Positions 18,555 through 41,276 of a DNA stretch of 64,000 nucleotides are shown piece after piece. The DNA is from an uncultured Chloroflexia bacterium (lineage in GTDB: Bacteria > Chloroflexota > Limnocylindria > Limnocylindrales > CSP1-4). The stretch is taken from assembly GCA_963728635.1 (NCBI GenBank), contig CAVSKR010000006.1:43203-107202 (forward strand), given 5' to 3'. The notes under the pieces are model-generated. The model ran no database searches and was not told the origin of the DNA. It saw only the letters and a list, made by a program, of their open reading frames with translations. Numbering within the stretch: position 1 is the stretch's first letter; each line of letters opens with the position of its first letter. A program made the position numbers and the translations under genes.

Positions 18555-20806
18555 CCGAGCGGTCCCCCAAGGGAGACGCGAAGGGCGCAGGGCGGATCGT
18601 CGTCGACGGGCGCCCGGTGCCGTTCGAGCCCGGCGATTCCGTCGCTATCGCGATCCTCCGGACCGGCGTGACCCCGGCCGGCGGCGGGACGCAGTGCCTG
18701 AGCGGTGACTGCGGGAACTGCCTGGCCCAGGTCGACGGGGTGGCGTACGTCCGGACCTGCCAGGTCGGCGCACGACCGGGGCTGGCCGTCGTCCGGCATC
18801 CGGCGGACGGCCTGCCGCCCCTCCCGACGATCTCCGGTGCGGACCTGTCGGCGTCGCTGTCGGGGCCCGACATCGAGGTCCTGCGCGCCGAAGTCGACGT
18901 CGCCGTGATCGGCGCGGGCGACAGTGGCCGGGAGGCGGCTGCGACCGCGGAGCGCGCCGGCAAGCGCGTCCTCGTCCTCGATGCCGCGGGAGGCGATGAG
19001 GTCGTCGGCGTCTATCCCGGTCCGATGCTGGTCGTTCGGACGCCGACGCTGATGCTCCACGTCCACGCCCAGGAGATCGTCGTCGCCACCGGCGCGGCCG
19101 AGCTCCACCCGGTCGTCCCCGGCAGCGACCTCGCGGGTATCGTGACCTCGCGCGCCGCCCAGCGATTGCACGCGGCCGGCGTGGAGATGGGCGCGGCGAT
19201 CGCCGTCGGGACGCCACCGCCGGGCGTGCCCAGCATCCCGGTGGCCGGCCAGCTCATCCGGCTCGAAGGCGACGAGCGCGGTCGCGTGCGCGCGGTCGTG
19301 ACCGCCGACGACTGGATCGGGGCCGAGACCACGACGCCCTGCGACACCGTCATCGTCGGGCTCGGCTTCGCGCCCCGCGACCTGCTCGCGCGGATGGCCG
19401 GGGAAGTGCCACTGAGCGTGGTCGGGTCGGCGGCGTTGCCGGCTGCCCTGCCCCCCGCTCCGACCAGCGGGATCGTCTGCCCCTGTTCGGGGACCACCGT
19501 CGACGACCTGCAGGCGGCCTGGGATCGCGGCTTCCAGGAGCTGGAGCTCCTCAAGCGGTCGAGCCTCGCCTGCCTCGGCACGTGCCAGGGCAGCGCGTGC
19601 CTGCCGCACGTCCGCGCGTGGATCGCGGCGCGGACCGGCGAGGTGCCGGCGCCCTTCACCGCGCGTCCCGCCTCGCGGCAGATCACGCTCGCCGAGGCTG
19701 CCGCGGACACCCAGGTCGATGTCTTCCGGCGGACGCCGCTGCACGAAGAGCACCTCGCGCTCGGCGGGCGGCTCGACCGGTTCGGGAACTGGTGGCGGCC
19801 GTGGCACTACGGCGACGCGATCGCCGAGTACTGGAGCGTCCGCGAGGGCGTGTCGGTGGGCGACGTCAGCACGCTCGGGAAGGTCGTTGTCTCTGGGCCC
19901 GACGTCGTCGAGTTCCTCGAGCGGCTGTACCCGTGCAACGTCGCCGACATCCGGCCGGGTCGCTCGCGCTACGCGCTGCTGCTCAACGAACGCGGCCACA
20001 TCATGGACGACGGGATGATCCTGCGCGAAGCGGAGACCCGGTTCGTGCTGACGTTCACGTCGGGTGGTGCGGCGAACGCCGAGATGTGGCTCCGCGACTG
20101 GGTCGACGAATGGGGGCTCCGGGTCCACGTGATGGACCGCACGATGTCCCTCGCCGCGATCAACGTCACGGGGCCGCTGGCCGGCCAGCTCCTTCGGCGC
20201 GCCGGTCTGGCCGAGCCACCGGCATTCCTCGGGCACGTCCGGGCCGACGTGGCGGGGGTCCCGTGTCACGTGATGCGGCTCTCCTTCACCGGCGAGGCAT
20301 CCTGGGAGCTGCATCACCCGGTCGATCGGTCGGTGGAGCTGTGGCGAGCGCTCCTGTCGATGGGCGAGGAATGGGGAATCCGCCCGCACGGTCTCAAGGC
20401 GCTCTTCGGCCTGCGGCTCGAGAAGGGCCACGTGATCGTGGGCATGGACACCGAGCTGGACACGACGCCGCGTCGGGTCGGGATGCCGTGGGCCGTCCGC
20501 ATGGACAAGCCGACGTTCATCGGTCGCGCGGCACTCGAAAGGACGGCGAACCAGCCCGACCATCGCCGGCTGCGCGGGTTCACGATGGAGGGTGACGCGC
20601 CCATCGAGGGCTCGCCGATCTTCGTCGACGGCGAGATCGTCGGCCACATCTCGGGCAGCTGGGCGTCACCGATCCTCGAGAAGACCGTGATGCTCGGCTG
20701 GCTCAAGCGGTTGCCGTTCGCCGAGACGGTCGAGATCGACGGTCGCGAGGCGGTCGTCACGCCGACTCCGTTCTATGACCCGGAGGGCCACCGTGCACGT
20801 GCTTAG
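18551..20806 (+). CDS. soxA: sarcosine oxidase alpha-subunit family protein (N-terminal 2Fe-2S, FAD/NAD-binding and GcvT domains)
   Basis: GTG overlapping upstream stop; N-terminal Cys cluster CLSGDCGNCLAQVDG, VAVIGAGDSG dinucleotide fold, GcvT domain at C-terminus; 751 aa is short for SoxA; 1132-aa ORF-track call is an out-of-frame upstream extension. Confidence 0.75.
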   Translation: MTERSPKGDAKGAGRIVVDGRPVPFEPGDSVAIAILRTGVTPAGGGTQCLSGDCGNCLAQVDGVAYVRTCQVGARPGLAVVRHPADGLPPLPTISGADLSASLSGPDIEVLRAEVDVAVIGAGDSGREAAATAERAGKRVLVLDAAGGDEVVGVYPGPMLVVRTPTLMLHVHAQEIVVATGAAELHPVVPGSDLAGIVTSRAAQRLHAAGVEMGAAIAVGTPPPGVPSIPVAGQLIRLEGDERGRVRAVVTADDWIGAETTTPCDTVIVGLGFAPRDLLARMAGEVPLSVVGSAALPAALPPAPTSGIVCPCSGTTVDDLQAAWDRGFQELELLKRSSLACLGTCQGSACLPHVRAWIAARTGEVPAPFTARPASRQITLAEAAADTQVDVFRRTPLHEEHLALGGRLDRFGNWWRPWHYGDAIAEYWSVREGVSVGDVSTLGKVVVSGPDVVEFLERLYPCNVADIRPGRSRYALLLNERGHIMDDGMILREAETRFVLTFTSGGAANAEMWLRDWVDEWGLRVHVMDRTMSLAAINVTGPLAGQLLRRAGLAEPPAFLGHVRADVAGVPCHVMRLSFTGEASWELHHPVDRSVELWRALLSMGEEWGIRPHGLKALFGLRLEKGHVIVGMDTELDTTPRRVGMPWAVRMDKPTFIGRAALERTANQPDHRRLRGFTMEGDAPIEGSPIFVDGEIVGHISGSWASPILEKTVMLGWLKRLPFAETVEIDGREAVVTPTPFYDPEGHRARA

Positions 20807-21209
20807 GTCGCCGGGCGTTCGGGTCGTCGCGTCGCCCGCGGCGATCGATGGCGCGGCGTGGCAGCGTGCCAACCCAGGCCCCGATGATGACTTCGAGCCG
20901 CTGATCCTGCGGTTCGCGCCTGACGAGGTCTTCGCGATCGGGGCGACCGGAGTCCGCATCGACGACCCCGACGCGATCACCGAGGCCGAGGTCGGCTACG
21001 TCGCGGTCATGTTCCCCGTGGACGAGTTCATCGACTTCGTCCTGCCCCGGATCGAATGGCCGGCGCCCGCCACGCGGCCGGCCTTCGCACAGGGCGCGAT
21101 CGCTGGGGTGCCCGCGAAGCTGTATATCGATTCGACCGGCGCGGCCACGGTCTTCGTCCTCGCCGCCTATCTCGACGACCTCCTGGCGCGTCTGCCGGTG
21201 CCGACGTGA
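20775..21209 (+). CDS. soxG: putative sarcosine oxidase gamma-subunit-like protein
   Basis: 144-aa ORF between soxA and soxB in operon position; assignment by context only; start ambiguous (ATG 20775, GTG 20793 or 20799). Confidence 0.4.
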   Translation: MTRRATVHVLRSPGVRVVASPAAIDGAAWQRANPGPDDDFEPLILRFAPDEVFAIGATGVRIDDPDAITEAEVGYVAVMFPVDEFIDFVLPRIEWPAPATRPAFAQGAIAGVPAKLYIDSTGAATVFVLAAYLDDLLARLPVPT

Positions 21210-21330
21210 CGCGGCACCCCATGCGCCGTCACCGCCGCGTTGCCGACTGCGCGTGCTCGCTCACGCACGTCGGAGTGCGATCGCTCGCATGCTCGTCGGC
21301 GCCTTGCGCTGACACCACCTGGGGAGCCGC

Positions 21331-22554
21331 GTGAGGACCGGGGTCGCCGCCGGCTACGTCGCGACGCTGCCCCACCTGCGCTGGGATGAGCCGCGCGATG
21401 CCTACGACGTGGTGATCGTCGGTGGCGGGGGGCACGGGCTGTCGACCGCGTACTACCTGGCGACCCGCCACGGCATCACGAACGTCGCCGTCCTCGAAGC
21501 CGACTACATCGCCTCGGGGAACACCGGCCGCAACACGACGATCATCCGCGCCAACTACGGCCTGCCCGAGGCGATCCGCTTCTACCAGCACTCGCTGGAG
21601 ATGTACCGCGACCTCGAGGACGAGGTCGGCGCGGCGATCCTCCACCAGACCAAGGGCATCTTCTGGCTGGCCCATACCGAGATGGCGCTGCGCACCGAAC
21701 GTGCGCGGGCGGCGATGAACACCGCCGCCGGCGCGAAGACGGTGATGGTGACGCCGGCCGAGATCAAGGAGCTCGTTCCCCAGATCGACCTGACCGGTGG
21801 GCGCCGGTATCCCGTCCTGGGTGCCTCGCATCACCTCGAGGCGGCCACCGCCCGACATGATCGTGTCGCCTGGGCCTATGCGGCGGGTGCCGCCGCACGT
21901 GGCGTCCACGTCATCCAGCACACGCCGGTGACGGGCCTCGTTCGCGACGGCGATCGCATCGTCGGCGTGGAGACGGCGCGCGGCCGGATCGCCGCTGGCA
22001 TCGTGCTGTCGGCCGTGGGCGGGCGGGTCACCGCTTTGGCGGCGCAGGCCGGGCTCAGGCTCCCGATCCGGACCCACCCGCTGCACGCCTTCGTGACCAA
22101 CGACTACGCGCAGGGTTTCGGTCCGATCGTCGCGAGCACCGAGCTCATGTGCTACGTCTCCCAGACCGAGCGAGGGCAGATGCTGATCGGCGCCGAGTTC
22201 GATGCCCAGCCCTCGTACTCCCGTCAGTCGTCGTTCGCCGCCCTGCGTGGCTACGCCCACAAGATCACGCGCATCCTGCCGTTCCTGCGCGACCTGCGGA
22301 TCCTGCGGACGTGGGCCGGCATCTGCGACATCTCGGTCGACTTCTCGCCGATCATGGGCTTCACCGGCGTCGACGGGTTCCTCGTCACGACCGGCTGGGG
22401 GACATGGGGCTTCAAGGCGATCCCCGCTGGTGGCGAAGCGATGGCCGAGCTGATCGCCACGGGCCGGACGCCGGATCTCATCGCGCCGTTCGGACTCGAT
22501 CGATTCCGTCGCGACCACGCGATGGCCGACCAGGGCTCGGCGGGGACGCGCTGA
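21331..22554 (+). CDS. soxB: sarcosine oxidase beta subunit (FAD-dependent)
   Basis: GTG after GGGGAG; FAD motif VVIVGGGGHGLSTAYYLA; DAO-family core; 407 aa. Confidence 0.85.
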   Translation: MRTGVAAGYVATLPHLRWDEPRDAYDVVIVGGGGHGLSTAYYLATRHGITNVAVLEADYIASGNTGRNTTIIRANYGLPEAIRFYQHSLEMYRDLEDEVGAAILHQTKGIFWLAHTEMALRTERARAAMNTAAGAKTVMVTPAEIKELVPQIDLTGGRRYPVLGASHHLEAATARHDRVAWAYAAGAAARGVHVIQHTPVTGLVRDGDRIVGVETARGRIAAGIVLSAVGGRVTALAAQAGLRLPIRTHPLHAFVTNDYAQGFGPIVASTELMCYVSQTERGQMLIGAEFDAQPSYSRQSSFAALRGYAHKITRILPFLRDLRILRTWAGICDISVDFSPIMGFTGVDGFLVTTGWGTWGFKAIPAGGEAMAELIATGRTPDLIAPFGLDRFRRDHAMADQGSAGTR

Positions 22555-22800
22555 ATGCTCTGGCTCGATTGCCCACGCTGCGGCCGGCGACCGCTGGAGG
22601 AGTTCACCTTCGGCGGCGAACGTCGCCAGGTGCCGGACTCGATCACCGACCCGGCCGACCGCGACTTCGACGATGTCTGGATCTTCGAGAACCCCGATGG
22701 CCCCTCGACCGAGCGCTGGTTCCACGCCCACGGATGCCGGCGCTGGCTGACCGTCCGGCGGGACACGAGCGTCGACCAGGTGCTCGAGATCCTGCCGTGA
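22555..22800 (+). CDS. soxD: sarcosine oxidase delta subunit
   Basis: 81-aa protein with zinc-ribbon CPRCG...HAHGC; ATG immediately after soxB stop. Confidence 0.8.
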   Translation: MLWLDCPRCGRRPLEEFTFGGERRQVPDSITDPADRDFDDVWIFENPDGPSTERWFHAHGCRRWLTVRRDTSVDQVLEILP

Positions 22801-22820
22801 CGGGCCTGGCCGACCGCGAA

Positions 22821-23984
22821 ATGGAGATCACGCTGCGCAATCGCGTCCTTTTCGGGGTGGGCGCCGTGCGACGACTCCCCGAGCTGGTCGCCGCGGTCGG
22901 TGGCACGCGGGTCTTCCTCGTGACCGATCCTGGCGTCTTCACTGCCGGCCTGGCCGGCGAGGCACTGGACGTGCTGTCAGACGCCTCGGTCCCGACGACG
23001 ATGTTCAGCGCGGTCGAGGCGAACCCATCCGGCTCCACCGTCGAGCTCGGCGCTGAGGCGCTCCGAACCGTCGGCCTCGATAGGACCGTGATCGTGGCCC
23101 TCGGCGGCGGATCGGCCATGGACGCGGCCAAGGGTATGGCGCTGTGCGCGGCCAACGATCGACCGGTGTGGGAGCTCGAGTACGACGGGCCGGACCTCTC
23201 GCCAGGGGTCCCGATCATCGCGATCCCGACCACGGCGGGGACCGGTTCCGAGGCCCACCCGTTCGCGGTCATCACCCACGAGGAGATCGGACGCAAGGAC
23301 TACATCGGCCACCGGTCGCTGCTGCCGGTCGCGACGATCCTCGATCCGGCCCTGACCGTCGGGTTGCCGGCCGGGATGACCGCCGCGTCCGGCGTCGACG
23401 CACTGACCCACTCCCTGGAATCGCTGCTCTCGCGGAACGGCAACCCGTTCGCCGAGGCGACCGCCCTCGGCGTCATCCGGACCGTGGTCGAGTGGCTGCC
23501 GCTGGCCGTCGCGGACGGCACGGACCTCGAGGCGCGCTCGCAGATGCTCATGGCCGCCCACCTTGCCGGCGTCGGGCAGGCGAGCGGGACGGGCGTCGGT
23601 CTGGTTCATGCCCTCGGGCACGCGCTCGGCACTCGGGGTCGGCTGGCCCATGGGACGGCCCTCGCCGTGGTGCTGCCGGAAGTGCTCGAGTTCTACGCTG
23701 CGGAATCCGGCCTGCGGGATCGCGAGCTCGCCCTCGTCGGTGTCGCGATCCGAGCCGCCAGCCCGACCGAGCAGCCCGCGACGGCCGCGGGTGCAGCGAT
23801 CGGCGAGCTCCGTCGGTTCCTGGCCGGGGTCGGGCAGCGCCACCGCCTGACCGCGCTTGGCTTCGACGACGCGGCCCTCGACGTCGTCGCTCAGGACGCC
23901 ATCGATGACGCCGCGATCCGGAACTCGCCCCGTTTGCCGACTCTGATCCAGGCCCGAACGGTGCTCGCCTCCGTCACGGGCTGA
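22821..23984 (+). CDS. iron-containing (group III) alcohol dehydrogenase, candidate choline dehydrogenase analogue
   Basis: Fe-ADH motifs GGGSAMDAAK and metal-binding His residues; an alternative GTG at 22797 overlaps soxD stop. Confidence 0.85.
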   Translation: MEITLRNRVLFGVGAVRRLPELVAAVGGTRVFLVTDPGVFTAGLAGEALDVLSDASVPTTMFSAVEANPSGSTVELGAEALRTVGLDRTVIVALGGGSAMDAAKGMALCAANDRPVWELEYDGPDLSPGVPIIAIPTTAGTGSEAHPFAVITHEEIGRKDYIGHRSLLPVATILDPALTVGLPAGMTAASGVDALTHSLESLLSRNGNPFAEATALGVIRTVVEWLPLAVADGTDLEARSQMLMAAHLAGVGQASGTGVGLVHALGHALGTRGRLAHGTALAVVLPEVLEFYAAESGLRDRELALVGVAIRAASPTEQPATAAGAAIGELRRFLAGVGQRHRLTALGFDDAALDVVAQDAIDDAAIRNSPRLPTLIQARTVLASVTG

Positions 23985-29638: not shown

Positions 29639-30490
29639 CTAGCGGTCGACCGGAAGGTCGAGCCGGTTGCCCCACTCGGCCCAGCCGCCGTCGTACACGG
29701 CGACATCGTCGTGGCCGAGGAGGCTCAGCACGAAGGCGAGCTTCGCGGCTGCCACGCCCGATCCGTCGTACGCCACCATCCGGCTGCCGCGGCTGACATT
29801 CGCGGCGTGCAGGCGATCGCGCAGGTCGCCGCCCTCCCGCAGCCGCTGGCTGCCGGCCGCGTGCATCGAGCCGACGGGAACGTTGATGGCGCCCGGGATG
29901 TGCCCGAGTCGCCGGGTGTTGCCTTCGAAGCCGCGGTACTCGGCCGGCGCCCGCGCGTCGAGCAGCGTGACGCCGGGCGCGCCCAGGAGACCACGGACGT
30001 CCGAGGTCGTCAGATGGAGCCGGTTCGGGCCACGCGGCGTGAATGGGGTCAGCGGCGCGGGTGGGGTCTCGCCGGTCCCGCGCTCGACCGGGCGGCCCTC
30101 CGCCTCCCACGCCGGGAACCCGCCATCGAGGATCCGGACGTGTTCGGCGCCGTAGGTGCGGAACGTCCACCAGATCCGAGCCGCGTAGAGGCCCTGGGTG
30201 TCGTCATAGATCACGATCGTCGTCTCGTCGCCGATCCCGGCTCGGCCCGCCGTCGCCGCGACTCGACCGGGAGAGGCGACCCGGATGGCATCCCCGGATT
30301 GATCCATGTCGACGAGGTCGGTGCGCCAGTCGACCGAGACCGCGCCCGGGATGTGGCCCGCCCGGTGGACGTCCGCTCCGGTCCCGTCCGGCCGCCAGCG
30401 GGCGTCGAGGATGCGCACACCCGAGCGACCCAGGTGCTCGGCGAGCCACTCGGTCGTGGCGAGGATCTCGGGTCGGGCCAGGCCGGACAT
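29639..30490 (-). CDS. thiosulfate/3-mercaptopyruvate sulfurtransferase (tandem rhodanese domains)
   Basis: Two rhodanese domains; catalytic-loop region (RLGHIPGAINVP); 283 aa. Confidence 0.85.
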   Translation of the reverse strand: MSGLARPEILATTEWLAEHLGRSGVRILDARWRPDGTGADVHRAGHIPGAVSVDWRTDLVDMDQSGDAIRVASPGRVAATAGRAGIGDETTIVIYDDTQGLYAARIWWTFRTYGAEHVRILDGGFPAWEAEGRPVERGTGETPPAPLTPFTPRGPNRLHLTTSDVRGLLGAPGVTLLDARAPAEYRGFEGNTRRLGHIPGAINVPVGSMHAAGSQRLREGGDLRDRLHAANVSRGSRMVAYDGSGVAAAKLAFVLSLLGHDDVAVYDGGWAEWGNRLDLPVDR

Positions 30491-30501
30491 CGTGGGTATA
30501 T

Positions 30502-31752
30502 ATGATACGGGCCGTGGCCGCCCTCGAACCCCCTGACGACGGCCGGCTCGCGGCCGTTCGGGCGGCCCTCCCCGCGCTCGAGGCGGGCATCTACCTGAAC
30601 ACCGGCTCGGTCGGGCCGCTTCCCGCCGAGACCGCGGCCGCCATGGCCGAGCTGGCCGAGTACGAGCTCCGCACCGGCCGGGCGCACATGGCGTACTACG
30701 AGGAGATGCTCCAGCGCATGGCCGAGGCGCGTGCCGCGGTCGCCGCCGTGCTCACCGCCGACGTCGGCGACATCGCGCTGACGCACTCCACCACCGACGG
30801 CATGAATATCGGGATCTGGTCGATCGACTGGCGGCCGGGCGACAAGGCCGTCACGACCAGCCTCGAGCACCCGGGCGGCATCGGTGCGCTGTACAACCTG
30901 CGGGAGCGATTGGGTATCGAGCTCGCGTTCGTCGACGTCGGTCCGGCTCGGGCCCCGGAGGATGTCGTCGCCGACTTCGAACGCGCGATCGACCAGCGCA
31001 CGCGGGTCGTCGCGATCTCCCACGTGTTGTGGGCTTCGGGCACGGTCCTGCCGATCGCGCGGATCGCGGAGCTTGCCCACGCCCAGGGGGCCGTCCTCGT
31101 GGTCGACGGCGCGCAGAGCGCCGGCGCCATGCCGGTCGACCTCGAGGCAACGGGCGCGGACGTGTATGCGATCCCCGCCCAGAAATGGCTGCTCGGGCCG
31201 GAGGGCATGGGTGCGGTCGCGGTGGCGCCGTCGGTCCGGGATCGTCTCGCTCCGGCGTACGGTGGTCATTTCACATTCGAGAAGGTCGACTCGAGCGGGA
31301 CGGCGGTCTGGTGGCCGGACGCGCACCGCTTCGAGGCGTCGAACTACCACCGTCCGTCGATCGTCGGTATGGCCCGCTCGATCGGGTGGATGAGCATGTT
31401 CCTCGGACTCGACTGGGTCTACGGTCGCGGCGCGGCGATGGCGGACGCGGCCGCCCGCCGGCTGGCCGCGATCGATGGCGTGGAGGTCGTGACGCCGATG
31501 GACCGGATGGCGACGCTCGTCGCGTTCCGGATCGCCGGCTGGCCCGCGCAGGTCGCGCTCGACGAGTTGAGCGCCCGGGTGTTCGCGGTCGCTCGGATCG
31601 TGGCGCTCATCGATGCGCTGCGGATCAGCGTGGGGTTCTTCACCTCGGACGACGAGCTGGAGCGCTTCGCCGGCGCTGTCGAGCTGCTCGCGGCTCACAC
31701 GCCGGAGACGATCCCGCCCAGGCGGACGCTCACGATCCTCAGCGGTGGCTGA
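30502..31752 (+). CDS. class V aminotransferase-fold PLP enzyme (cysteine desulfurase/selenocysteine-lyase-like)
   Basis: ATG at 30502; class V fold, PLP-Lys region (AIPAQKWLLGPEGMG); divergent from the rhodanese; ORF-track start 30043 is an extension. Confidence 0.8.
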   Translation: MIRAVAALEPPDDGRLAAVRAALPALEAGIYLNTGSVGPLPAETAAAMAELAEYELRTGRAHMAYYEEMLQRMAEARAAVAAVLTADVGDIALTHSTTDGMNIGIWSIDWRPGDKAVTTSLEHPGGIGALYNLRERLGIELAFVDVGPARAPEDVVADFERAIDQRTRVVAISHVLWASGTVLPIARIAELAHAQGAVLVVDGAQSAGAMPVDLEATGADVYAIPAQKWLLGPEGMGAVAVAPSVRDRLAPAYGGHFTFEKVDSSGTAVWWPDAHRFEASNYHRPSIVGMARSIGWMSMFLGLDWVYGRGAAMADAAARRLAAIDGVEVVTPMDRMATLVAFRIAGWPAQVALDELSARVFAVARIVALIDALRISVGFFTSDDELERFAGAVELLAAHTPETIPPRRTLTILSGG

Positions 31753-31825
31753 CGGGCCACCGATCCGGCGGCGTTCCTGGGCGGAGATCCGCTGGCGCCA
31801 GTTCCGCAACGCCCCCCGGCCCGTC

Positions 31826-32140
31826 GTGCGGGCCGTGCTGTCCAGCCTGGTGATCGCGATCGTGCTGGCGGTCGCGTACCTGTCCTACGACCTCGCGCTC
31901 GTGCATGGCGCGACCCTCCCCGGCGGTGACCTGCGCCTCCTCGCACTCCTCGCCTACGCCGTGGCCGTCCTGGCCGTCGGGACGGTCGTCACCTATCTCG
32001 TCGTGCCCCAGCCGAGCGGGTCCGGGACGATCCGCCGACGGAGCCCCTGGAGCGCCGCCCTCGGGCTGTTCGCCGCCGTGCCGATCGCGTGGCTGGTGAT
32101 GATCGTGACGCTCCAGCTCATCCGGCCGATCCTCGCCTGA
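31826..32140 (+). CDS. hypothetical small membrane protein
   Basis: GTG start; three predicted TM segments; start uncertain. Confidence 0.35.
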   Translation: MRAVLSSLVIAIVLAVAYLSYDLALVHGATLPGGDLRLLALLAYAVAVLAVGTVVTYLVVPQPSGSGTIRRRSPWSAALGLFAAVPIAWLVMIVTLQLIRPILA

Positions 32141-32295
32141 TCGTTGTCGCGTCAGTGCAACACCAAAGGCTGCCCGACGATGCGAACCGCCTAGCCCATC
32201 CGTACCATTCCCGCTACCCTGCGCTGGCATCATCATCCGGCGTGTCTCCCGGGGATCCAGGGAGACCCTCCGCATCTCCCTTCGAGGTTTCCGCG

Positions 32296-32598
32296 TTGTC
32301 CATCGACGAGCAGCACGTCGCGCTCCCGAAGCTCTACGGAGCACCGGCCTACGCCCGCCCGCCGGCCGTGGCGGAGACCGTCGATCGGCCGTTCGATCCC
32401 GATGACCTCCCCATCGAGGCATTCCAGACAGAGGAAGACCGCGCCTTCGCCGCGACCTTGCCCGCCCGGGCCTGGGCGCCCGGCGGCTCCTCACTCGATC
32501 GCGGGCGGCGTGACGGCCGGAGCGGCGATTCGCCTCTCAGCCTCGCCGGGCGGCACCTGAGCCTTCGCTCGATCGCGGGCAAGCTCCTCGGCGACTGA
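32296..32598 (+). CDS. hypothetical protein
   Basis: TTG start after GAGG; high GC3; no motifs; lies just upstream of tRNA-Ile. Confidence 0.3.
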   Translation: MSIDEQHVALPKLYGAPAYARPPAVAETVDRPFDPDDLPIEAFQTEEDRAFAATLPARAWAPGGSSLDRGRRDGRSGDSPLSLAGRHLSLRSIAGKLLGD

Positions 32599-32647
32599 CC
32601 GGGCCGCTTCGGACCGATTTCCCTCCCGGCGGGTGTAGCATCGTCGC

Positions 32648-32723
32648 GGGGGAGTAGCTCAACGGTCAGAGCGGCGGGCTTATATCCCGCTGGTTCCAGG
32701 TTCGAATCCTGGCTCCCCTACCA
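32648..32723 (+). tRNA. tRNA-Ile, anticodon TAT (UAU) by manual folding
   Basis: 76 nt: acceptor GGGGGAG/CTCCCCT (G1-U72), D-arm GCTC-AACGGTCA-GAGC, anticodon arm GCGGG-CTTATAT-CCCGC (U33, A37), T-arm CCAGG-TTCGAAT-CCTGG, discriminator A, encoded CCA. Confidence 0.75.
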
Positions 32724-32743
32724 GCCCTCCTCCAACCCCCGTG

Positions 32744-33496
32744 TCAGCGAGCGGCTGCGCGAACCGCCTCCGCGACCTGCTGACGGCGTCCATCGGTGAG
32801 GCTGCGTTGTGGCGGCAGCGCATCGATCCAGGCGACCAGCTGGTCCGGCGCGAGCACGGCACAGTCCGTCGTCCGTGGCATGGTCGGCTCGGGTCCGACG
32901 ACAGCCGCGTAGACCTTGACGACGAAGTCGGCGTCATCGTGGCCGAGCCAGCGTCGGACACGCTCGGCATCGCGAGCCGCCCGCTCGAGCGGGTTCTCGA
33001 TCGAGACCCATCCGCGTCTCGTGCGGAGCTCCCAGCGTCCCTCGCGGATCCGGGTCACGGCCGCGGGCGGCAGCTCTCGGATGACTGCGCCACCGAACGG
33101 TCCGATGACGAGCTCCGAGACGCCGCGACCATCGGGCAGCGTGATGCCCGTCGCGACGATGACATCGTCGGCAGCTCCGTCGAGCGCGCGGATGGTCGTC
33201 GATCGACGCGGGATGCGACCGCGCGCCGAGGCCAGGATCCGGACGAGCCGGCTCGTGCCGATGAGCACCAGCCCAGCGGGCGCGACGAGGGCGATCGACC
33301 AGACGGCAGCACCGGTCGCGATCTTGCCGGCATCGAGATGTCCTTGGGGCATCAGCGACCGCAGGGCAGGCGTCGCGAGCGCGAGGTATGCGAGGACGAT
33401 GCCGGTGACGATGAGCACCGTCCCGACGACGGTGCTCCCGACGAGCGGCGCCATCGACGGTCGCTGGGTCGCGTGCGAGGGGTGGATGACCTCCAT
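32744..33496 (-). CDS. NERD (nuclease-related domain)-like membrane protein
   Basis: ATG at 33496 (MEVIHPSH...); two N-terminal TM helices then region with ELVIGPFGGAVIREL resembling the NERD core. Confidence 0.5.
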   Translation of the reverse strand: MEVIHPSHATQRPSMAPLVGSTVVGTVLIVTGIVLAYLALATPALRSLMPQGHLDAGKIATGAAVWSIALVAPAGLVLIGTSRLVRILASARGRIPRRSTTIRALDGAADDVIVATGITLPDGRGVSELVIGPFGGAVIRELPPAAVTRIREGRWELRTRRGWVSIENPLERAARDAERVRRWLGHDDADFVVKVYAAVVGPEPTMPRTTDCAVLAPDQLVAWIDALPPQRSLTDGRRQQVAEAVRAAAR

Positions 33497-33747
33497 GAGG
33501 CCATCCTCGGGAGCACGGCCGGGAGCGTCGATGGGCGAACCGGGGTAAGCGGTGCGGCCGGTGGGACCACGGCGCACACCGGACCGCACCTCACCCGACA
33601 GGCCCGGCCGTGGGCTGGTGCGCGCCTGCACCGCGCCGGTCGGCGACCGCGCACCGGACCCCCGTACCATTGCTCGGCCCTCGCCCGAAACGCATCCTCG
33701 CGGTCAGGATGCATCGTCCCGACCGTCACCCCAGACCCCCCAGAACG

Positions 33748-35217
33748 ATGCGCGAGCCAGGTCGCTGGCGGGCCCGCATCGGTGCGTCGATCGGCGCCAT
33801 CGCGCTCGTGCTGTCGGCCGTCGCCCCGGCGTGGGCAGGTTCGGGTCCGACCCGCCTGTCCGACCCCGCCGCGTCGCCTCGCTCGGGCACGCCCACGACG
33901 ACCGTGGCGATCACCGTCGGATACCGGAACCGCGAGGGATCGCCCGCCGACTGGGTGCGCGTGACGGTCGCGGGCTCGACGCGAACGATGTCCAGCACCG
34001 GTGGCACCGACTGGAAGCGCGGAGTGACCTTCCGGTGGGCCGGTCGGCTGCCGGCCGGTTCGCACGCCATCTCGATCGAGGCGATGAGCCGCGACCGGTT
34101 CTCCGACACGATCTCGGCGGGAACGGTCACGATCGCCACCCCGCCGACCCCCGAGCCGACCCCGCGTCCGACCGCGCGCCCGACGCCGAGACCGACTCCC
34201 CGTCCGACCCCACGCCCGACTCCCCGGCCGACGCCGAGGCCGACTGCGGCACCGGTCGCCGCTGCGCCGACGGCGGCTCCGACCGCGTCGCCCACCGCGT
34301 CGCCGAGCGAAACCGCCACCGCCTCGCCCAGCCCAGCGCAATCCCCAACCGAGAGCCCGGTTCCGAGCGAGGATGCCGTGGCGGTCGTGCCCGGCCTCGC
34401 CAGCGCGACACCCGGTGGCGGCACGTCACAGCCGGGAGCCCCGGTGCAACCACCCGTCGGGGGAGGGGACGACGGGCCATTCGCGGCTTTCGAGGCAGGC
34501 ATCGACTTGCTCACGAGCGGTCGCCCATCCGTCCCGCTCGGCCTCGTTGCCACGCTCGTCACGACGTCTGGCGTCGTCGGCGCGACGCTGGCCTTTGGCG
34601 TATTCGGAAAGCGCCGGCGGGACGGCGAGCCACCGGTTCCCGACGAGGTGCTCCGGCACAACGCCTCCAGCCCGATCGCGATCGCGGCCGCAGCCGCCTA
34701 CGCCGAGAGCCTTGCTGCGAGTCCCCACCCGGGCGTGGCGGTCGCGAACGCCCCCCACCCGCTCGACAGCGAGCTGGCGATGCCGCGCTGGCGCCGTCCG
34801 TCGCTGCTCGAGGCACGCAGGAACGACCCGATCCGCGACGCGACCGATGCTCCCCGCCTCACCTTCGACCACGGGCTGGTCGGGCCGATCGACGGGCGCG
34901 AGCGTCGACTGATCCGCTACAGCCTGGTTCGCCTGCTCGATATCCCCGACGAGCTGCGCGGGACGGAGCTCGCCTTCCTCGACCAGGGTGACGAGGTGCA
35001 GCTCCTCGAGAAGCGCGGCGACTACTGGCTGGTCCTGTGCCCTGACGGCCGCCAGGGCTGGATCCACAAGATGACCCTCGGCGACGTGATCGGCGAGGCG
35101 CCGGTCCAGAGCACGCCCACCGCGACGATGCCGATCGCCGCGGACACCTGGACGATGGGCGATGACGTCGACGGCGACGTCCTCGCGGCCTACATGGAGA
35201 GTCGCCGCCGGGCCTGA
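33748..35217 (+). CDS. secreted/membrane-anchored protein with PT-rich repeat linker and C-terminal SH3b-like domain
   Basis: Signal peptide (IGASIGAIALVLSAVAPAWAG), (TPRP)n repeat tract, central TM helix, C-terminal YWLVLCPDGRQGWIHKMTLGDV resembling bacterial SH3. Confidence 0.6.
   Translation: MREPGRWRARIGASIGAIALVLSAVAPAWAGSGPTRLSDPAASPRSGTPTTTVAITVGYRNREGSPADWVRVTVAGSTRTMSSTGGTDWKRGVTFRWAGRLPAGSHAISIEAMSRDRFSDTISAGTVTIATPPTPEPTPRPTARPTPRPTPRPTPRPTPRPTPRPTAAPVAAAPTAAPTASPTASPSETATASPSPAQSPTESPVPSEDAVAVVPGLASATPGGGTSQPGAPVQPPVGGGDDGPFAAFEAGIDLLTSGRPSVPLGLVATLVTTSGVVGATLAFGVFGKRRRDGEPPVPDEVLRHNASSPIAIAAAAAYAESLAASPHPGVAVANAPHPLDSELAMPRWRRPSLLEARRNDPIRDATDAPRLTFDHGLVGPIDGRERRLIRYSLVRLLDIPDELRGTELAFLDQGDEVQLLEKRGDYWLVLCPDGRQGWIHKMTLGDVIGEAPVQSTPTATMPIAADTWTMGDDVDGDVLAAYMESRRRA
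34144..34250 (+). repeat. imperfect 12-nt tandem repeats encoding a (Pro-Thr-Pro-Arg)n linker
   Basis: ccgacccc(g/a)cg(t/c) units repeated ~8 times inside the CDS. Confidence 0.5.
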
Positions 35218-36158
35218 CGCGTCCGGTCACGGCGCGGCCGCTCGCCCCCGGCCGGCTCGCGCCGCAGCACGAGGATGTGCTGGTGGGCGATGTTCGGGAC
35301 GAACACCCGCGGGTATCCGTACGGGCGCAAGCGTGTCCCGGCCTGATGCCAGATGAGGTCGCCCTTGGGCACGAGCCCGGCGCCGTCCGCACGGGCCGCG
35401 AGATCGGCGCCCACGAACTGGTAGCGGCCATTCTGGTAGGCGTCGCGCACGATGACGATCGCGTAGCGCCCCGGGCGCAGGATGCGCGCGAGCTCGGCGA
35501 ACACCCGGCCCATCGCCTCGAGGAACGCCTCGTAGTCGGCGGCGTTGGCGAGGTCGGCGGGAGCGTCGCTGATCATCGCGTAGTCGGTCCGCCGGTTCGC
35601 GTGCGCCTCGGCGAGCTTGCCGCCGGCCATCGTCAGCGGAAGCTGGATGTTGTAGGGCGGGTCGGTCGCCACCAGGTCGATCGAGGCGTCCGGCAGCGTC
35701 GGCAGGATCTCGAGCGCGTCGCCGGTCCGCATCTCGAGCCCGGCCGGATCGAATGAGCGGATCGGACCCGGATCCGCCGTCCCGAGGTCCGCGATCGCGG
35801 GGCCACGCCCGTCGCGCTCCCCGGCGAGCCCGGCGACGACCTCCTCGTACACGGCGACCCAGCGCGGGTCGAGCTCGATGCCGAGCGCACGCCTGGGTCC
35901 GCGCGCGATCGCGGCACCGATCAGGGTGCCTCCGACGCCGGCGAATGGGTCGAGGACGAGCTCATCGGTCTTGCTGAAGAACTCGATGAGGCGCGCCATG
36001 AGGCGTGGCGGCTTGTTCGCGCCGTGCGCCTTGCGCGCGACATGACCGAGCTCCGAGGGATAGGCGGTCGTCAGGACCGACTTCGTGAAATAGAGCCATT
36101 CCTCGCCGGGCAGCTCGTTGAGCGTGTTGTCGGGGTGGGGAGCTCGACGGCCGTCGGT
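35190..36158 (-). CDS. DNA methyltransferase, N4-cytosine/N6-adenine family; orphan
   Basis: AdoMet motif HGANKPPRLMARLIEF...VLDPFAGVGGT precedes catalytic DPPY (LVATDPPYN); GTG start at 36158 leaves a divergent promoter for the LAL gene; ATG 36293 alternative. Confidence 0.7.
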   Translation of the reverse strand, partial: TDGRRAPHPDNTLNELPGEEWLYFTKSVLTTAYPSELGHVARKAHGANKPPRLMARLIEFFSKTDELVLDPFAGVGGTLIGAAIARGPRRALGIELDPRWVAVYEEVVAGLAGERDGRGPAIADLGTADPGPIRSFDPAGLEMRTGDALEILPTLPDASIDLVATDPPYNIQLPLTMAGGKLAEAHANRRTDYAMISDAPADLANAADYEAFLEAMGRVFAELARILRPGRYAIVIVRDAYQNGRYQFVGADLAARADGAGLVPKGDLIWHQAGTRLRPYGYPRVFVPNIAHQHILVLRREPAGGERPRRDRTRQARRRLSM

Positions 36159-36313
36159 CACGACGCGCAGCGTAGCCGCTCCCGGCGGCGAACGGACCGC
36201 GACCGGCGGCGTCGGGGCTGCCTTCGGAAGAGTGGTGCCCGCGGTCCACAGGTCAGCCCGGCAGTCGCCGATCCGTGGGTGTCCAGCGCCCACCGTTGTG
36301 TACGATGGGCTCG

Positions 36314-39300
36314 ATGGCCGCCACCTACACGAGCGCGCGGTTCGTGGGGCGAGAGGACGCGTTCGCGAGGCTCGCGACCGTGCTCCGATCGGCCTCGGCG
36401 GGCGCTTCAGGGACGCTCCTCGTCGACGGGACGGCGGGGGTCGGCACGAGTCGCTTCATCGATGAGGCGATCCGCCGCGTGGCCGGCCTGCAGGAGCCGA
36501 TGGCCGTCCTGCGAGGAGGGGCGTTCGGTCCGGGAACCGATGCGCCGTACGAGCCCCTGGTCCGGGCGCTGCGGCCCGTCCTGACCGAGTTGCCGGACGA
36601 TGAGCTCGCGCGGGTGCTCGGCACCGCGACCGACGAGCTCGTCCGGCTCATCCCGGAGCTCGCGGATCGCGTCGAGCCGCCGGGAGCCGAGGGTCGCCGG
36701 ATCCTGACGGCCGTTCCGGAGCGTCGTCAGGCGAGGCTGCTCGAGGGTGTGCTCGGCGTGGTCGGCCGGCTCGGCGAACGGCAGCCGGTCCTCCTGATCA
36801 TGGAAGACCTCCACCGTGCGGACGCCGGCACCCGGACGCTCGTCACGTTCCTCGCGCGGATCGCCCGGTCGCACCGGCTCGCGGTGGTGGCCACCTACCA
36901 GGCCGACGCGATCAGACGCGAGGATCCCTGGTCGCTCGATCTGGCGATCCTCGACGCCGCGCCACGACCGCCGGCGCGGCTCACGCTTGCGCCTCTCGGG
37001 CGCGACGAGCTCGCACGGCTGATCGAGTCGATCGAGGATTCGCGGCCGTCGGCGAGCGTGCTGGTCGTCGTCGCGGAGCGCTCCGGTGGCCGCCCGCTGG
37101 TCGCCGAGGAGCTGCTTGCGGCGCGACGCGAGCTGCCGACCGTGTCCCTCACCTCATCGTTCCAGGATCTGGTCCTCGCGCGGATCGGGGCGCGCTCACC
37201 GGAGGCGCGGCGGGTGCTGCGCCTGCTCGCTCCGGCCGGCCGGCCGCTGCAGCGCGCGGACCTCGCCTCCATCGCCGAGGCATTCGAGGCGGACCTGACC
37301 AGCGGCCCGCCGCGCTCCTCCCATGAGCCCCGGCGCGGCGACGGCGTCCTCGACGCCGACCTTGTCCACGGGCTCGACGAGGCGATCGAGTACGGGTTCG
37401 TCCGCGAGGACGATGCGGGTCTCGCGCTCCGCCATGAGCTCGTCGGCCGTGCGATCGAGGCCGACCTGCTGCCATCGATGCGTATCCGCCATCACGCGGC
37501 GGTGGCGCGAGCGCTCGACGATCGACCGTTCGTCGCGATGCACCATTTCCGGACCGCCCTGGACCCGGTGGCGGTGCGTCATGCCGCTATTGCCGCAGCC
37601 GATGCCGCCGCCGCGATCGACGCGCCACTCGACGAGCTGGAGGCACTCGAACTCGCGATCGCTGCCGGCAGCGCGACCGGTGTTACCTCGCGCCACGGCG
37701 GCCGACGACGGAGCGACCCACCGGTCCTGCCACCGACCGAGATGAATGCGCGCGCAGCGGAAGCGGCGTTCGCCGCAGGCCGGCCGGTCCGGGCGGCCGC
37801 CTACCTCGATGCAGCGATCGCGTCCATAGATGGGCGGCGCGACCGCACTCGGCTGGGTCTCATCCACGACCGCCTGGCCCTGTTCCGCCGGATCGCCGGC
37901 GACGTGGAGGGCTCGCTCGCGGCTCGCCGACGGGCGGTCGATCTCGTCCCCACGACGCCCTCGCCGGCGCGTGCGGCGGTCGTCGCCGGACTGGCGCAGA
38001 TGCTCATGCTCGAGGGCACCTTTTCCGAAGCCGACCGTCTTGCCCGCGACGCGATCCGGATCGCCAGGGCGTGCGATCCGCCGGCGCGGCGCTGGGAGCT
38101 GCACGCCACCACGACGCTCGGTGTCTCCCTCGGCTGGCGGGCCGACCCGGAGGCCGCGCTCGCGATGCTGGCCGACGCCCGGGTGATGGCCGAAGAGCTC
38201 GGTGATCTCGACGAGCTCTTCCGGATACAGGCAAACCTGACCACCGTCCTGGAACTGGCGGGGCGGCACGAGGAGGCCGTCACGGTCGCGTCGGCCGGGA
38301 TCGAGGCGGCCAAGGCCGCCGGTCTCGAGGCCGTCTACGGCAACGTCCTGCGTGGCAACGCGGCCGACTCGCTGTTCCTGCTCGGTCGCTGGGAGGAAGC
38401 GCGAGCCATGAGCATGACCGCGCTCGAGTGGCTGCCGGCCGGCATCAACTTCCTGAACGCCCTGGTCTCCCTCGCGACCGTCGAGATCGAGCTGTCGGCG
38501 GGGGAGGCGGCCGGTCGGCTCCTCGGTCAGACGCTCCTGGAGCTCGAGGCGGTTCGCGACGCGCAGCAGGCCGTCCCGCTCCACCTCGCGTCCGCTTCGT
38601 TCGCGTTGTGGCGTGGCGACCTCGCCGACGCCCGCCGCGCGGCCGAGCGGGGCTGGTCGCTCGTGCGCGAGACCGAGGACTGGATCCTCGCCGCGCGAAC
38701 GGCAGCCGCCGTGATCGAGGTGGAGGCCGCGGCCGCGGCCGAATCACGCGAGCAGCGCGACCTGGCCGGTCTCGCCGCCGCCCGCGAGCGGGCACGGGAC
38801 GTGATCCGCGCCGCCGAAGCGATCGTCAAGCGCCACGGCGTCGCCCCGTCACTCGGGTCGCGACGGCTGGCCGACGCGTGGCTGGCAACGGCACGCGCCC
38901 ATCGGCGGCGTGTCGATGCGCGTGACGACCCCGCGACCTGGACGGCGGTCGGCGACGCGTGGACCGACCTGCACATCCCATACGAGACGGCCCGTGCCCG
39001 ATGGCGTGAGGCCGAGGCGATGCTCGGATCCGGTGCCGGTCGCGCCGGTCGGGCGGACGCACGCGTCCCGCTCAAGGAAGCCGTCGACATCGCACTCACC
39101 CTCGGCGCGCTGCCGCTGTTGCGCGAACTGCGGGAGCTCGCAGGCCGGGCGCTCATCCCCCTGCCGTCCGAGGTCGAGACCGCCCTCGCGGGTCCGGACG
39201 ATCGACCGCGCCCGCTCATCGGCGTGATCGCGTCGGCGCCGGTGGCCGCGGCGATGTCGGTCGGGGCGGACGGGCTGGAGCCTGGCGATCCGTGGCAGCT

Positions 39301-39538
39301 CGGCGGTCCCGTCGAGCCACCGACCCGCCGCGACACCTTCGGGCTGAGCGGGCGCGAGCGCGAAGTCCTCGTCCAGATCGCCCGCGGCCGGACGAATCGC
39401 GAGATCGGCGAACGCCTGTTCATCAGCCAGAAGACCGTGGGCGTCCACGTCGGGAACATCCTGGCCAAGCTGGGCGTGTCGGGTCGGGTGGAGGCGGCGG
39501 CCGTCGCGATCCGGCTGGGACTGACCGAGAAGGGCTGA
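36314..39538 (+). CDS. LAL-family (large ATP-binding LuxR) transcriptional regulator: N-terminal AAA/STAND NTPase, helical TPR-like middle, C-terminal LuxR HTH
   Basis: N-terminal FVGREDAFARL; P-loop-like GTAGVGTSR (Lys replaced by Thr); LuxR HTH at C-terminus (LSGREREVLVQIARGRTNREIGERLFISQKTVGVHVGNILAKLGV); ~1075 aa. Confidence 0.85.
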   Translation: MAATYTSARFVGREDAFARLATVLRSASAGASGTLLVDGTAGVGTSRFIDEAIRRVAGLQEPMAVLRGGAFGPGTDAPYEPLVRALRPVLTELPDDELARVLGTATDELVRLIPELADRVEPPGAEGRRILTAVPERRQARLLEGVLGVVGRLGERQPVLLIMEDLHRADAGTRTLVTFLARIARSHRLAVVATYQADAIRREDPWSLDLAILDAAPRPPARLTLAPLGRDELARLIESIEDSRPSASVLVVVAERSGGRPLVAEELLAARRELPTVSLTSSFQDLVLARIGARSPEARRVLRLLAPAGRPLQRADLASIAEAFEADLTSGPPRSSHEPRRGDGVLDADLVHGLDEAIEYGFVREDDAGLALRHELVGRAIEADLLPSMRIRHHAAVARALDDRPFVAMHHFRTALDPVAVRHAAIAAADAAAAIDAPLDELEALELAIAAGSATGVTSRHGGRRRSDPPVLPPTEMNARAAEAAFAAGRPVRAAAYLDAAIASIDGRRDRTRLGLIHDRLALFRRIAGDVEGSLAARRRAVDLVPTTPSPARAAVVAGLAQMLMLEGTFSEADRLARDAIRIARACDPPARRWELHATTTLGVSLGWRADPEAALAMLADARVMAEELGDLDELFRIQANLTTVLELAGRHEEAVTVASAGIEAAKAAGLEAVYGNVLRGNAADSLFLLGRWEEARAMSMTALEWLPAGINFLNALVSLATVEIELSAGEAAGRLLGQTLLELEAVRDAQQAVPLHLASASFALWRGDLADARRAAERGWSLVRETEDWILAARTAAAVIEVEAAAAAESREQRDLAGLAAARERARDVIRAAEAIVKRHGVAPSLGSRRLADAWLATARAHRRRVDARDDPATWTAVGDAWTDLHIPYETARARWREAEAMLGSGAGRAGRADARVPLKEAVDIALTLGALPLLRELRELAGRALIPLPSEVETALAGPDDRPRPLIGVIASAPVAAAMSVGADGLEPGDPWQLGGPVEPPTRRDTFGLSGREREVLVQIARGRTNREIGERLFISQKTVGVHVGNILAKLGVSGRVEAAAVAIRLGLTEKG

Positions 39539-40011: not shown

Positions 40012-40521
40012 ATGCGAACCCTTCGTACCCTGTCCGCCGTCCTGGCCGTCGTCGCGCTCGGTGCGTGCACGGCCGCCAAGCCCGGCTGGACCTACGCCCC
40101 GGCGCCATCGCCCACACCCATCCCGAGCGTCGTGCCGAGTGGCTCCGCGCCCGCGCCCAGCGCCTCAGCGAGTGCCTCTGCCAGTGCGCCGGCCAGCCCG
40201 AGTGCCAGCGCCAGTGCGTCCGCGAGCGCCTCCGCTGGTGCCGGGACCGTCCTCGAGCTCGTCGCCGAGCAGATCGCCTTCACCACGACGACGCTGTCGG
40301 CGCCCGCCGATCAGCCGTTCCAGATCGACCTCCAGAACAACGACGCAGGGGTCCCCCACAACGTCGAGATCAAGGACGCGGGCGGTGCCTCGCTGTTCCA
40401 AGGCGACATCATCAACGGCGTCGCCGAGATCGTGTACGACGTGCCGGCACTGGCCGCCGGGCAGTACACGTTCCTGTGCACGGTCCATCCGAACATGACC
40501 GGGACCCTCACCGCGGGGTGA
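40012..40521 (+). CDS. cupredoxin-like (type-1 copper) lipoprotein with Ala/Ser-rich linker
   Basis: Signal and lipobox (LAVVALGACT); (SA)n low-complexity linker; C-terminal Cys-His-Met ligand set in FLCTVHPNMTG and upstream His in GVPHNVEI; ORF-track N-terminal extension rejected. Confidence 0.7.
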   Translation: MRTLRTLSAVLAVVALGACTAAKPGWTYAPAPSPTPIPSVVPSGSAPAPSASASASASAPASPSASASASASASAGAGTVLELVAEQIAFTTTTLSAPADQPFQIDLQNNDAGVPHNVEIKDAGGASLFQGDIINGVAEIVYDVPALAAGQYTFLCTVHPNMTGTLTAG

Positions 40522-41276
40522 CACCCGTCGCCGAACATATCTGCTACACCGACGCGTACGCCCGCTCGGCCCGGGCGCGCGTCCGGCACGTCGAGGTTGG
40601 TGACGCCACTCTCGTGGTCCTCGATCGAACGGTCTTCTACCCGGGCGGCGGCGGCCAGCCTCCCGACCGAGGCGTGCTCCTACGAGCATCCGACGGCCGC
40701 ACCTGGACGGTGCGCGCCGCGCGCAAGGCGGGTGGCGAGATCGTCCACGAGCTGGAACCCGATGGCGGCGACCCGCCGGCCGTGGACGACACGCTCGAGG
40801 TCGACCTCGACTGGCCTCGCCGCTTCGCGCTCATGCGCACCCACACGGCCCTCCACGCACTCTGCGGTGTCGTCTGGCGCGACCACGGCGCGCAGGTGAC
40901 CGGCGGCAACATGGAACCGGCCTCGGGCCGGATGGACTTCGAATTCGAGACGATGTCGGGCGACCTGGTCGACTCGATCGAGTCCGCGGTGAACGAGGAG
41001 CTCGCCGCAGCGCGCGACGTCCGTGTCGCGGTGCTGCCCCGCGACGAGGCGTTCGCGATCCCGGATCTCATCCGGACCAAGATCAACCTGTTGCCCGAAG
41101 GGATCGACGAGATCCGGACGATCGAGATCGTCGGGCTCGACCTGCAGGCCGATGGCGGCACGCATGTCGCCAACACCCGCGAGGTAGGCCAGATCAGGGT
41201 CACGGGCTACGAGTCGAAAGGCCGCATCAACAAGCGCATCCGCATCGAGCTGATCGACCCGATCGCCTCGATCTAG
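40518..41276 (+). CDS. alanyl-tRNA editing protein (AlaX-type, AlaRS second-additional domain)
   Basis: GTG overlapping cupredoxin stop; zinc motif HTALHAL; conserved ADGGTHV region. Confidence 0.7.
   Translation: MTPVAEHICYTDAYARSARARVRHVEVGDATLVVLDRTVFYPGGGGQPPDRGVLLRASDGRTWTVRAARKAGGEIVHELEPDGGDPPAVDDTLEVDLDWPRRFALMRTHTALHALCGVVWRDHGAQVTGGNMEPASGRMDFEFETMSGDLVDSIESAVNEELAAARDVRVAVLPRDEAFAIPDLIRTKINLLPEGIDEIRTIEIVGLDLQADGGTHVANTREVGQIRVTGYESKGRINKRIRIELIDPIASI

Follow-up and report, generated by a model that had tools for sequence, protein, structure and literature searches.

A stretch of 64,000 nucleotides from an uncultured bacterium of the Chloroflexota (GenBank assembly GCA_963728635.1, contig CAVSKR010000006.1), referred to here in its full length as the window and used as the basis for all coordinates, was analyzed with respect to a gene for a tRNA-Ile with the anticodon UAU and the genes that surround it. 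The window has a GC content of 70.3% and its gene content is that of ordinary chromosomal metabolism, including paa genes, a thiolase, an MttB-family methyltransferase, sarcosine-oxidase-like genes, an ATP-dependent DNA ligase and a transhydrogenase. Two tRNA genes were predicted in the window with ARAGORN, one of them being a tRNA-Ile (tat) of 76 nt at 32648–32723 on the forward strand. It matches the full length of the Rfam model RF00005 with 73 bits against a gathering score of 29 (E 4.7e-14), and its minimum free energy fold is a clean cloverleaf. The acceptor stem GGGGGAG/CUCCCCU gives a G1.U72 wobble pair (G1 at 32648 and U72 at 32719 of the window), and is followed by the discriminator A73 and a CCA encoded in the gene. 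The D stem is GCUC/GAGC and the anticodon stem is GCGGG/CCCGC, with three consecutive G-C pairs at 29-41, 30-40 and 31-39 (32676–32678 with 32686–32688). The anticodon loop consists of seven nucleotides, C32-U33-U34-A35-U36-A37-U38 (CUUAUAU), with U33 and A37 in place. An initial annotation of this DNA had read the loop as CU-UAU-AU by manual folding, which is confirmed by the ARAGORN call, the Rfam match and the reading of the sequence.

Of the elements relevant to recognition by isoleucyl-tRNA synthetase (IleRS), A73, A37 and U12-A23 are present in this tRNA, and it would be expected to be charged with isoleucine. The G1.U72 pair may be an identity or processing feature. A role as initiator tRNA, as suggested by the three G-C pairs of the anticodon stem together with the weak 1-72 pair, was also considered and rejected; no such role is proposed, because the 11-24 pair of the D stem is C-G, which is of the elongator type, and the genome has a GC content of 70%.

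To place the gene, one genome per GTDB species was scanned with a pattern composed of the anticodon arm and the T loop of the tRNA-Ile(UAU). This family-specific pattern was chosen because the general tRNA(TAT) pattern was too broad, matching many phage genes. At least 119 records were obtained, nearly all of them metagenome-assembled genomes (MAGs) of Chloroflexota, of which approximately one third were labelled Candidatus Limnocylindria or Limnocylindrales, with the others labelled Chloroflexota or ‘uncultured Chloroflexia’ (Microflora Danica MAGs). In the NCBI taxonomy, Limnocylindrales is an order within the class Candidatus Limnocylindria of the phylum Chloroflexota. The related loci were named L121–L242, and those closest to the window show 84–98% protein identity to it, for example L195, L121 and L156, the last of which is labelled Candidatus Limnocylindrales. 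The window is part of this uncultured high-GC lineage, Candidatus Limnocylindria. It should also be noted that the same syntenic locus, with protein identity of up to 91%, occurs in MAGs labelled Verrucomicrobiia, Patescibacteria, Eisenbacteria, Methylomirabilota, Sulfomarinibacteraceae or Anaerolineaceae (L160, L172, L189, L196, L206, L207, L133, L154, L205, and L229); these contigs are probably mislabelled or mis-binned Limnocylindria.

When the copies from genomes and metagenomes were taken together, 236 of 238 were found to belong to a single tRNA family with 36 distinct sequences. The differences within the family are limited to the D loop and to positions 26, 28, 44 and 59, plus compensatory stem changes at 6-67, 7-66, 27-43 and 51-63. 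In 16 distinct sequences all 21 stem pairs are formed (100% of cells), with double changes in four pairs. The G1.U72 pair is found in all 16 of these sequences and in all 236 family members, even where 6-67 and 7-66 covary, and A73 and CCA are likewise invariant across the family. Because the genome scan had required TAT, 241 million metagenome records were also searched for this tRNA body carrying A, C or G instead of T at position 34, which gave no match, against at least 120 for the T34 version used as control. T34 is fixed in this tRNA family. As the gene encodes T34 and not C34, lysidine is neither needed nor possible on this tRNA.

Two divergent members were found in a Candidatus Limnocylindrus sp. 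MAG of 63% GC (L210, 3471–3546) and in ‘Chloroflexi bacterium RE-chloro-G1’ (L158, 3198–3274), the pair having 63–65% GC. Both have kept the G1.U72 pair and the anticodon arm, with covariation in the acceptor and T stems. They lie in a second conserved context, namely ABC transporter, UbiA prenyltransferase, tRNA-Ile(UAU), YetF/DUF421 and SDR. The gene is therefore older than the split of at least two sub-lineages.

A check of AUA codon usage, as proposed in the initial annotation, was run on the window and on aligned orthologues, and AUA proved to be almost unused. In the gene set of the window ATA accounts for four of 19,113 codons (~0.2 per 1000), one of which (30505) is part of a TATSAT −10 box, described below, and not a codon. 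Among 222,316 orthologous codons aligned by tblastn, 35 genuine ATA codons were found. The best conserved ATA columns were 100%, 89% and 67% Ile, with most others being mixtures of Ile, Leu and Val and none being dominated by Met, which fits AUA being an isoleucine codon that is read by the tRNA-Ile(UAU). By extrapolation, a whole genome at this rate would hold a few hundred AUA codons. AUG is approximately 90 times more common than AUA in the window. Since an unmodified U34 is expected to wobble onto this far commoner codon, a tRNA-Ile with U34 must be kept off AUG.

The gene order around the tRNA was compared by tblastn of twelve window proteins against 122 related loci, with the tRNA setting the orientation of each. 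A shared order was present on both sides of the tRNA in approximately 115 of the 119 genome loci listed. It consists of the ATP-dependent ligase, a DUF6812 protein, a rhodanese (reverse strand), a class-V aminotransferase, a small ORF (orf131), an ORF of ~100 residues and the tRNA-Ile(UAU), followed by a NERD-like protein (reverse strand), a PT/SH3 protein, a methyltransferase (reverse strand), a LAL regulator, a cupredoxin and AlaX. The order persists in genomes where the identity has fallen to 33–45% for the NERD-like protein and 44–57% for the LAL regulator. Three contigs of 385–664 kb that were reached via the NERD-like protein alone show the identical order in independent gene calls, with a tRNA-Ile(tat) in place, and four further neighbour-anchored contexts agree with this. 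The tRNA-Ile(tat) was thus found at the same place in all seven contexts reached only via homologues of the neighbouring protein (58–88% identity). The rarity of tRNA-Ile(UAU) in bacteria, as stated in the initial annotation, holds in general (~17–19 genomes in surveys; PMC3575796; PMC4013482; PMC8450103) and not within this lineage, where the gene is apparently universal.

The region also lacks the hallmarks of an integrated element. Scans with Pfam (~47 of the ~64 predicted ORFs of the window), NCBIfam or PADLOC revealed no integrase domain in the ORFs covered. With up to three mismatches allowed, the window contains a single copy of the 25-nt 3′ end of the tRNA and thus no repeat of it, and no long direct repeat flanking the block at 32744–39538 was found in the window. 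The earlier statement that neither integrase nor flanking repeat is present thus stands after domain scans and repeat searches. The GC content of the block is 0.70–0.76 against a window mean of 0.70, with no shift in composition, and the methyltransferase was the sole defense-related match of PADLOC. In approximately 15 genomes the tRNA and the NERD-like gene are separated by an additional 1–1.9 kb of DNA, which codes for a PT-rich lipoprotein and sometimes for a family-4 uracil-DNA glycosylase; no mobility genes were found in it.

The first gene downstream of the tRNA (32744–33496, reverse strand) lies beside it in approximately 115 genomes and encodes a membrane protein with two transmembrane helices and a NERD-like or PD-(D/E)xK-like C-terminal domain. 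It is convergent with the tRNA, 21 nt separating its stop codon from the 3′ end of the tRNA. The ORF in its longest form extends to 33670, while most homologues begin at the position that gives 250 residues. The NERD domain (PF08378) gave sub-threshold matches only, with the Pfam gathering score not being reached. The AlphaFold model of the protein (pLDDT 77) shows a weak match to PD-(D/E)xK nucleases, and no PDB sequence was matched in a profile search with the family. More than 576 homologues were detected, nearly all from metagenome assemblies and none informatively named, and within the best 120 of these the identity declines smoothly from 97% to ~58%. The NERD-like protein of the initial annotation was roughly as described, with the domain itself staying below threshold.

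The next gene (33748–35217, forward strand, alternative start 33610) encodes a protein with a transmembrane segment, a PT-rich linker with 12-nt tandem repeats at 34144–34251 and a weak SH3-like domain at its C-terminus (SH3_3, E 1.7e-4, under the Pfam cutoff). Its position is conserved among the loci at 36–90% identity. Of the earlier description of this gene as a PT-repeat/SH3b protein, the PT-rich nature holds, with the SH3 match being weak and below cutoff. A PT-rich, lipoprotein-like protein of ~288 residues is also encoded by the insert next to the tRNA mentioned above, with a conserved C-terminal domain (LAMNLYxKGDFVSQATKDQCVSAAMQIMLN...) in L142, L174, L191, L201, L203, L206, L207, L217, L226, L233, and L236; three of the lipoprotein-bearing genomes also have the inserted family-4 uracil-DNA glycosylase.

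The 3′ end of the PT/SH3 gene is overlapped by 28 nt by the gene of a solitary, circularly permuted N6/N4 DNA methyltransferase (35190–36293, reverse strand; PF01555, E 1.9e-20). Its motif I (DPFAGVGGT) lies ahead of motif IV (TDPPY), which is permuted relative to the beta-class structure 2ZIE and bears out the permuted orphan enzyme that had been predicted. The protein is 57–90% identical across the class by tblastn, and approximately 18 of the loci extending to its position gave no tblastn match to it. It is better conserved (mostly 64–90%) than its neighbours in the same genomes, for which the values are 33–45% (NERD-like) and 44–57% (LAL). A LAL-type regulator follows, also in conserved position (36305–39538, forward strand, alternative GTG start 36275). 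The presence of AAA_16 (residues 22–205), TPR_12 (613–679) and a GerE/LuxR helix-turn-helix domain (1024–1078) agrees with its earlier assignment. Further downstream, a free-standing AlaXM-type alanyl-tRNA editing protein is encoded at 40518–41276 (NCBIfam, E 7.8e-76, below cutoff), and related contigs have this gene conserved at the same place, behind those for the LAL regulator and the cupredoxin.

Directly upstream of the tRNA and on the same strand is the ORF of ~100 residues with no assigned function (32287–32598; orf169 of the synteny comparison), which was called as a gene of 98–104 residues in related contigs. It is preceded by the conserved small membrane ORF of 131 residues, orf131 (31745–32140, forward strand), and by a SufS/CsdA-like class-V aminotransferase (AT5), which is cysteine-desulfurase-like (30514–31752, forward strand). 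A tandem-rhodanese sulfurtransferase resembling 3-mercaptopyruvate sulfurtransferase (29639–30490, reverse strand) is divergent from the latter, with an intergenic gap of ~23 nt (30488–30516). Within this gap a TATGAT box (30501–30506; conserved as TATSAT) lies 7 nt before the GTG start at 30514, and the mRNA of the desulfurase-like gene is therefore predicted to be leaderless. A rare ATA as codon 2 of this gene, which could have been a regulatory rare codon, was rejected when the alignment showed the TATSAT −10 box and the leaderless GTG; the longer ORF, beginning with ‘ATG ATA’ at 30502, is an artefact. The desulfurase-like and tandem-rhodanese genes lie within 1–3 kb upstream of the tRNA in nearly all related genomes, and such a sulfur relay beside a tRNA with U34 invites the idea of wobble thiolation. 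Speaking against this, there is no MnmA-like enzyme nearby and the whole region is syntenic in any case.

A possible promoter of the tRNA was found by alignment of 120 upstream regions. This is an extended −10-like box, TGTAGCAT (32634–32641, forward strand), with the hexamer TAGCAT at 32636–32641 and its end 6 nt before tRNA position 1. A box of the form TA[GC][GCA][AT]T is present within 70 nt upstream in 87 of the 120 loci, compared with 2.8% of background 70-nt windows. It ends 6–9 nt before G1 in 70 loci, and exactly 6 nt before it in 45. A generic sigma-70 scan upstream of the tRNA found nothing. The alignment suggests a dedicated promoter, and because the box ends 6–9 nt before G1 the putative start would coincide with the mature 5′ end or lie beside it. 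The primary transcript may thus have little or no leader for RNase P.

Two other regions of the window should be mentioned. A perfect 51-nt direct repeat is present at 61775–61825 and 63742–63792, with one copy forming the 3′ half of a tRNA-Arg(TCG) gene (63742–63818, reverse strand). The 1.97 kb between the copies contains small ORFs only (coiled-coil, PRC-barrel-like, and a GlsB/YeaQ-like membrane protein) and no integrase. It has the appearance of an att-type scar left when an element integrated into the tRNA-Arg gene. The second region, at 12955–23984, encodes an aldehyde dehydrogenase, the MttB-family methyltransferase (E 2e-194), two DAO/GCV_T fusions, sarcosine-oxidase-like subunits and an Fe-ADH, and looks like a locus for the catabolism of methylated amines or glycine betaine.

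Encoded UAU anticodons have been described in bacteria before. Those that lack tilS and have an encoded UAU comprise nine species in three clades, and a few species have both systems (Taniguchi et al., 2013; PMC3575796). In tRNADB-CE, 19 species with tRNA-Ile(UAU) are recorded (PMC4013482), and in a survey with tRNAscan-SE 2.0 the 17 genomes with it belong to Bifidobacterium, Mycoplasma and Neorickettsia (PMC8450103). UAU is described in a review as generally missing in prokaryotes (PMC8007984). In the full-text literature, searches on Limnocylindria with tRNA and on lysidine with Chloroflex* returned nothing on this trait, which is seemingly unreported in the class. What is new is a large, free-living, high-GC lineage carrying a kind of tRNA that is already known. 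The tRNA-Ile2(UAU) of Mycoplasma mobile is comparable in that an encoded UAU reads AUA without lysidine and A37 is available for t6A. That organism, however, is an AT-rich, genome-reduced parasite with frequent AUA codons, no tilS, an unmodified U34 and Arg865 in IleRS (PMC3575796), whereas the present gene belongs to a free-living soil lineage of 70% GC with ~0.2 AUA per 1000 codons and an invariant G1.U72. M. mobile keeps its UAU tRNA off AUG by the unmodified U34, an adapted IleRS and a property of the ribosome (PMC3575796). The adaptation of IleRS to U34, as in M. mobile and Bifidobacterium, consists of Arg or Lys for Trp in the Zn-binding domain or of a eukaryote-type IleRS. The tRNA-Ile3(UAU) of Bifidobacterium and Neorickettsia (PMC3575796; PMC8450103) is similar as a replacement or supplement of tRNA-Ile2(CAU) at the level of a lineage, Bifidobacterium also being high in GC. 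These genera, however, are without tilS, have a eukaryote-type IleRS and belong to another phylum, and Chloroflexota are in neither survey. Compared with the canonical tRNA-Ile2(CAU) that receives lysidine from TilS, the codon, the amino acid, the cloverleaf and A73 are all alike, the difference being the encoded T34 instead of C34, with no C34 version in the metagenome scan above.

Taken as a whole, the favored explanation, to which a probability of roughly 0.85 is given, is that the gene is a functional, vertically inherited and lineage-wide chromosomal decoder of AUA of the tRNA-Ile3(UAU) type, and that the genes downstream are an ancient neighbourhood and not cargo. The tRNA would be transcribed from its own −10-type promoter and would read the very rare AUA directly and specifically as isoleucine; with UAU encoded, this decoding would need no lysidine-modified CAU anticodon. 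The NERD-like, PT/SH3, methyltransferase and LAL genes would be members of an old conserved chromosomal neighbourhood that extends upstream as well. Several points weigh against this explanation. The pairs C4-G69 and C29-G41, which are identity pairs for the IleRS of E. coli, are G4-C69 and G29-C41 here, and the isoleucine identity rests on the anticodon (by which ARAGORN assigns the isotype), on A73 and A37, and on the codon columns, which comprise ~35 codons, many at variable positions. It also has to be assumed that U34 is restricted in some way, be it by a modification, a low abundance of the tRNA or a feature of the ribosome. The genome scan with its at least 119 records was conditioned on the TAT pattern, the seven contexts anchored on neighbouring genes being the sole unconditioned sample, and approximately 33 of the 120 loci are without the −10-like box.

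That the tRNA marks an integration site, with 32744–39538 being horizontally acquired accessory cargo, was the proposal of the initial annotation, and it is given very little credence. tRNA genes commonly serve as integration sites, and the succession of a tRNA, a nuclease-like protein and a solitary methyltransferase resembles known tRNA-associated islands, with the absence of the methyltransferase from ~18 related loci and the extra genes in ~15 pointing in the same direction. However, the same genes are found in the same order in approximately 115 species-level genomes, with identities that decay smoothly to 35–45%, and unlike in such islands there is no integrase in the scanned ORFs and no att repeat, compositional shift or presence/absence polymorphism of the block. 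The extra genes encode a lipoprotein and uracil-DNA glycosylase and not mobility functions, and they and the loss of the methyltransferase are ordinary lineage-specific gene turnover. The real tRNA-linked insertion signature of the window is the 51-nt duplication at the tRNA-Arg gene, 30 kb away. Because the downstream genes are syntenic across the family, the island proposal is refuted on its own terms. A phage-derived or otherwise recently transferred tRNA is even closer to negligible. Phage tRNA-Ile(TAT) genes are common, the general tRNA(TAT) pattern giving at least 120 matches to viral contigs, yet the family-specific pattern matched a single viral contig of 44% GC with an unrelated tRNA body, a megablast search of plasmids with window DNA gave no match, and the neighbourhood of the gene is chromosomal and conserved.

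A more serious question is whether the tRNA-Ile(UAU) is a redundant second decoder of AUA, adding nothing essential in Limnocylindria that also keep TilS and tRNA-Ile2(CAU); the odds of this are put at a little below even. To our knowledge tilS is nearly universal in bacteria, and the finding that there is none covers the scanned ORFs of this 64-kb window only; ileS is also not in the window. Bacteria with both systems have been listed by Taniguchi et al. (PMC3575796), among them Lactobacillus casei, Cyanothece PCC 7424 and Ferrimonas balearica with TilS and a tRNA-Ile(TAT), and two AUA systems possibly coexist here in the same way. Those cases are single strains or species, whereas fixation of the present gene extends over more than 115 species-level genomes. 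A superfluous gene would be expected to be patchy or decaying, yet T34 is fixed (0 against at least 120) and the tRNA hardly varies among genomes in which the proteins encoded beside it have fallen to 35–60% identity. Two deep sub-lineages also retain the gene in two different conserved neighbourhoods. As it is fixed and near-invariant, the gene is probably not a dispensable duplicate. A bolder extension of the favored explanation, held tentatively and with the balance tilted against it, is that the whole class Candidatus Limnocylindria lost or never had TilS and tRNA-Ile2(CAU), and that AUA is decoded via the tRNA with the encoded UAU alone, with G1.U72 and a restriction on U34 as lineage-specific devices for identity and fidelity. 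If the class is indeed free of TilS, it is conceivable that this restriction is a thiolation fed by the neighbouring desulfurase-like and rhodanese genes.

For annotation, the locus illustrates that a methyltransferase and a nuclease-like gene behind a tRNA do not by themselves count as evidence of an island. The discrimination of AUA from AUG is one of the few points where the bacterial code hangs on one essential modification enzyme, TilS, and natural escapes from this dependence are known in only a few genomes, most of them reduced or host-associated. A fixed tRNA-Ile(UAU) in an abundant soil and freshwater class of Chloroflexota would extend such escapes to a large free-living clade, and the hundreds of MAGs available would form a clean comparative system for the behaviour of U34 toward AUG, the adaptation of IleRS and the dispensability of TilS. 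The finding is a lead for specialists in tRNA and decoding, and would be notable if TilS proves absent from the class. Were that the case, TilS-independent decoding of AUA would for the first time be on record for a large, free-living bacterial clade of high GC content, Candidatus Limnocylindria.

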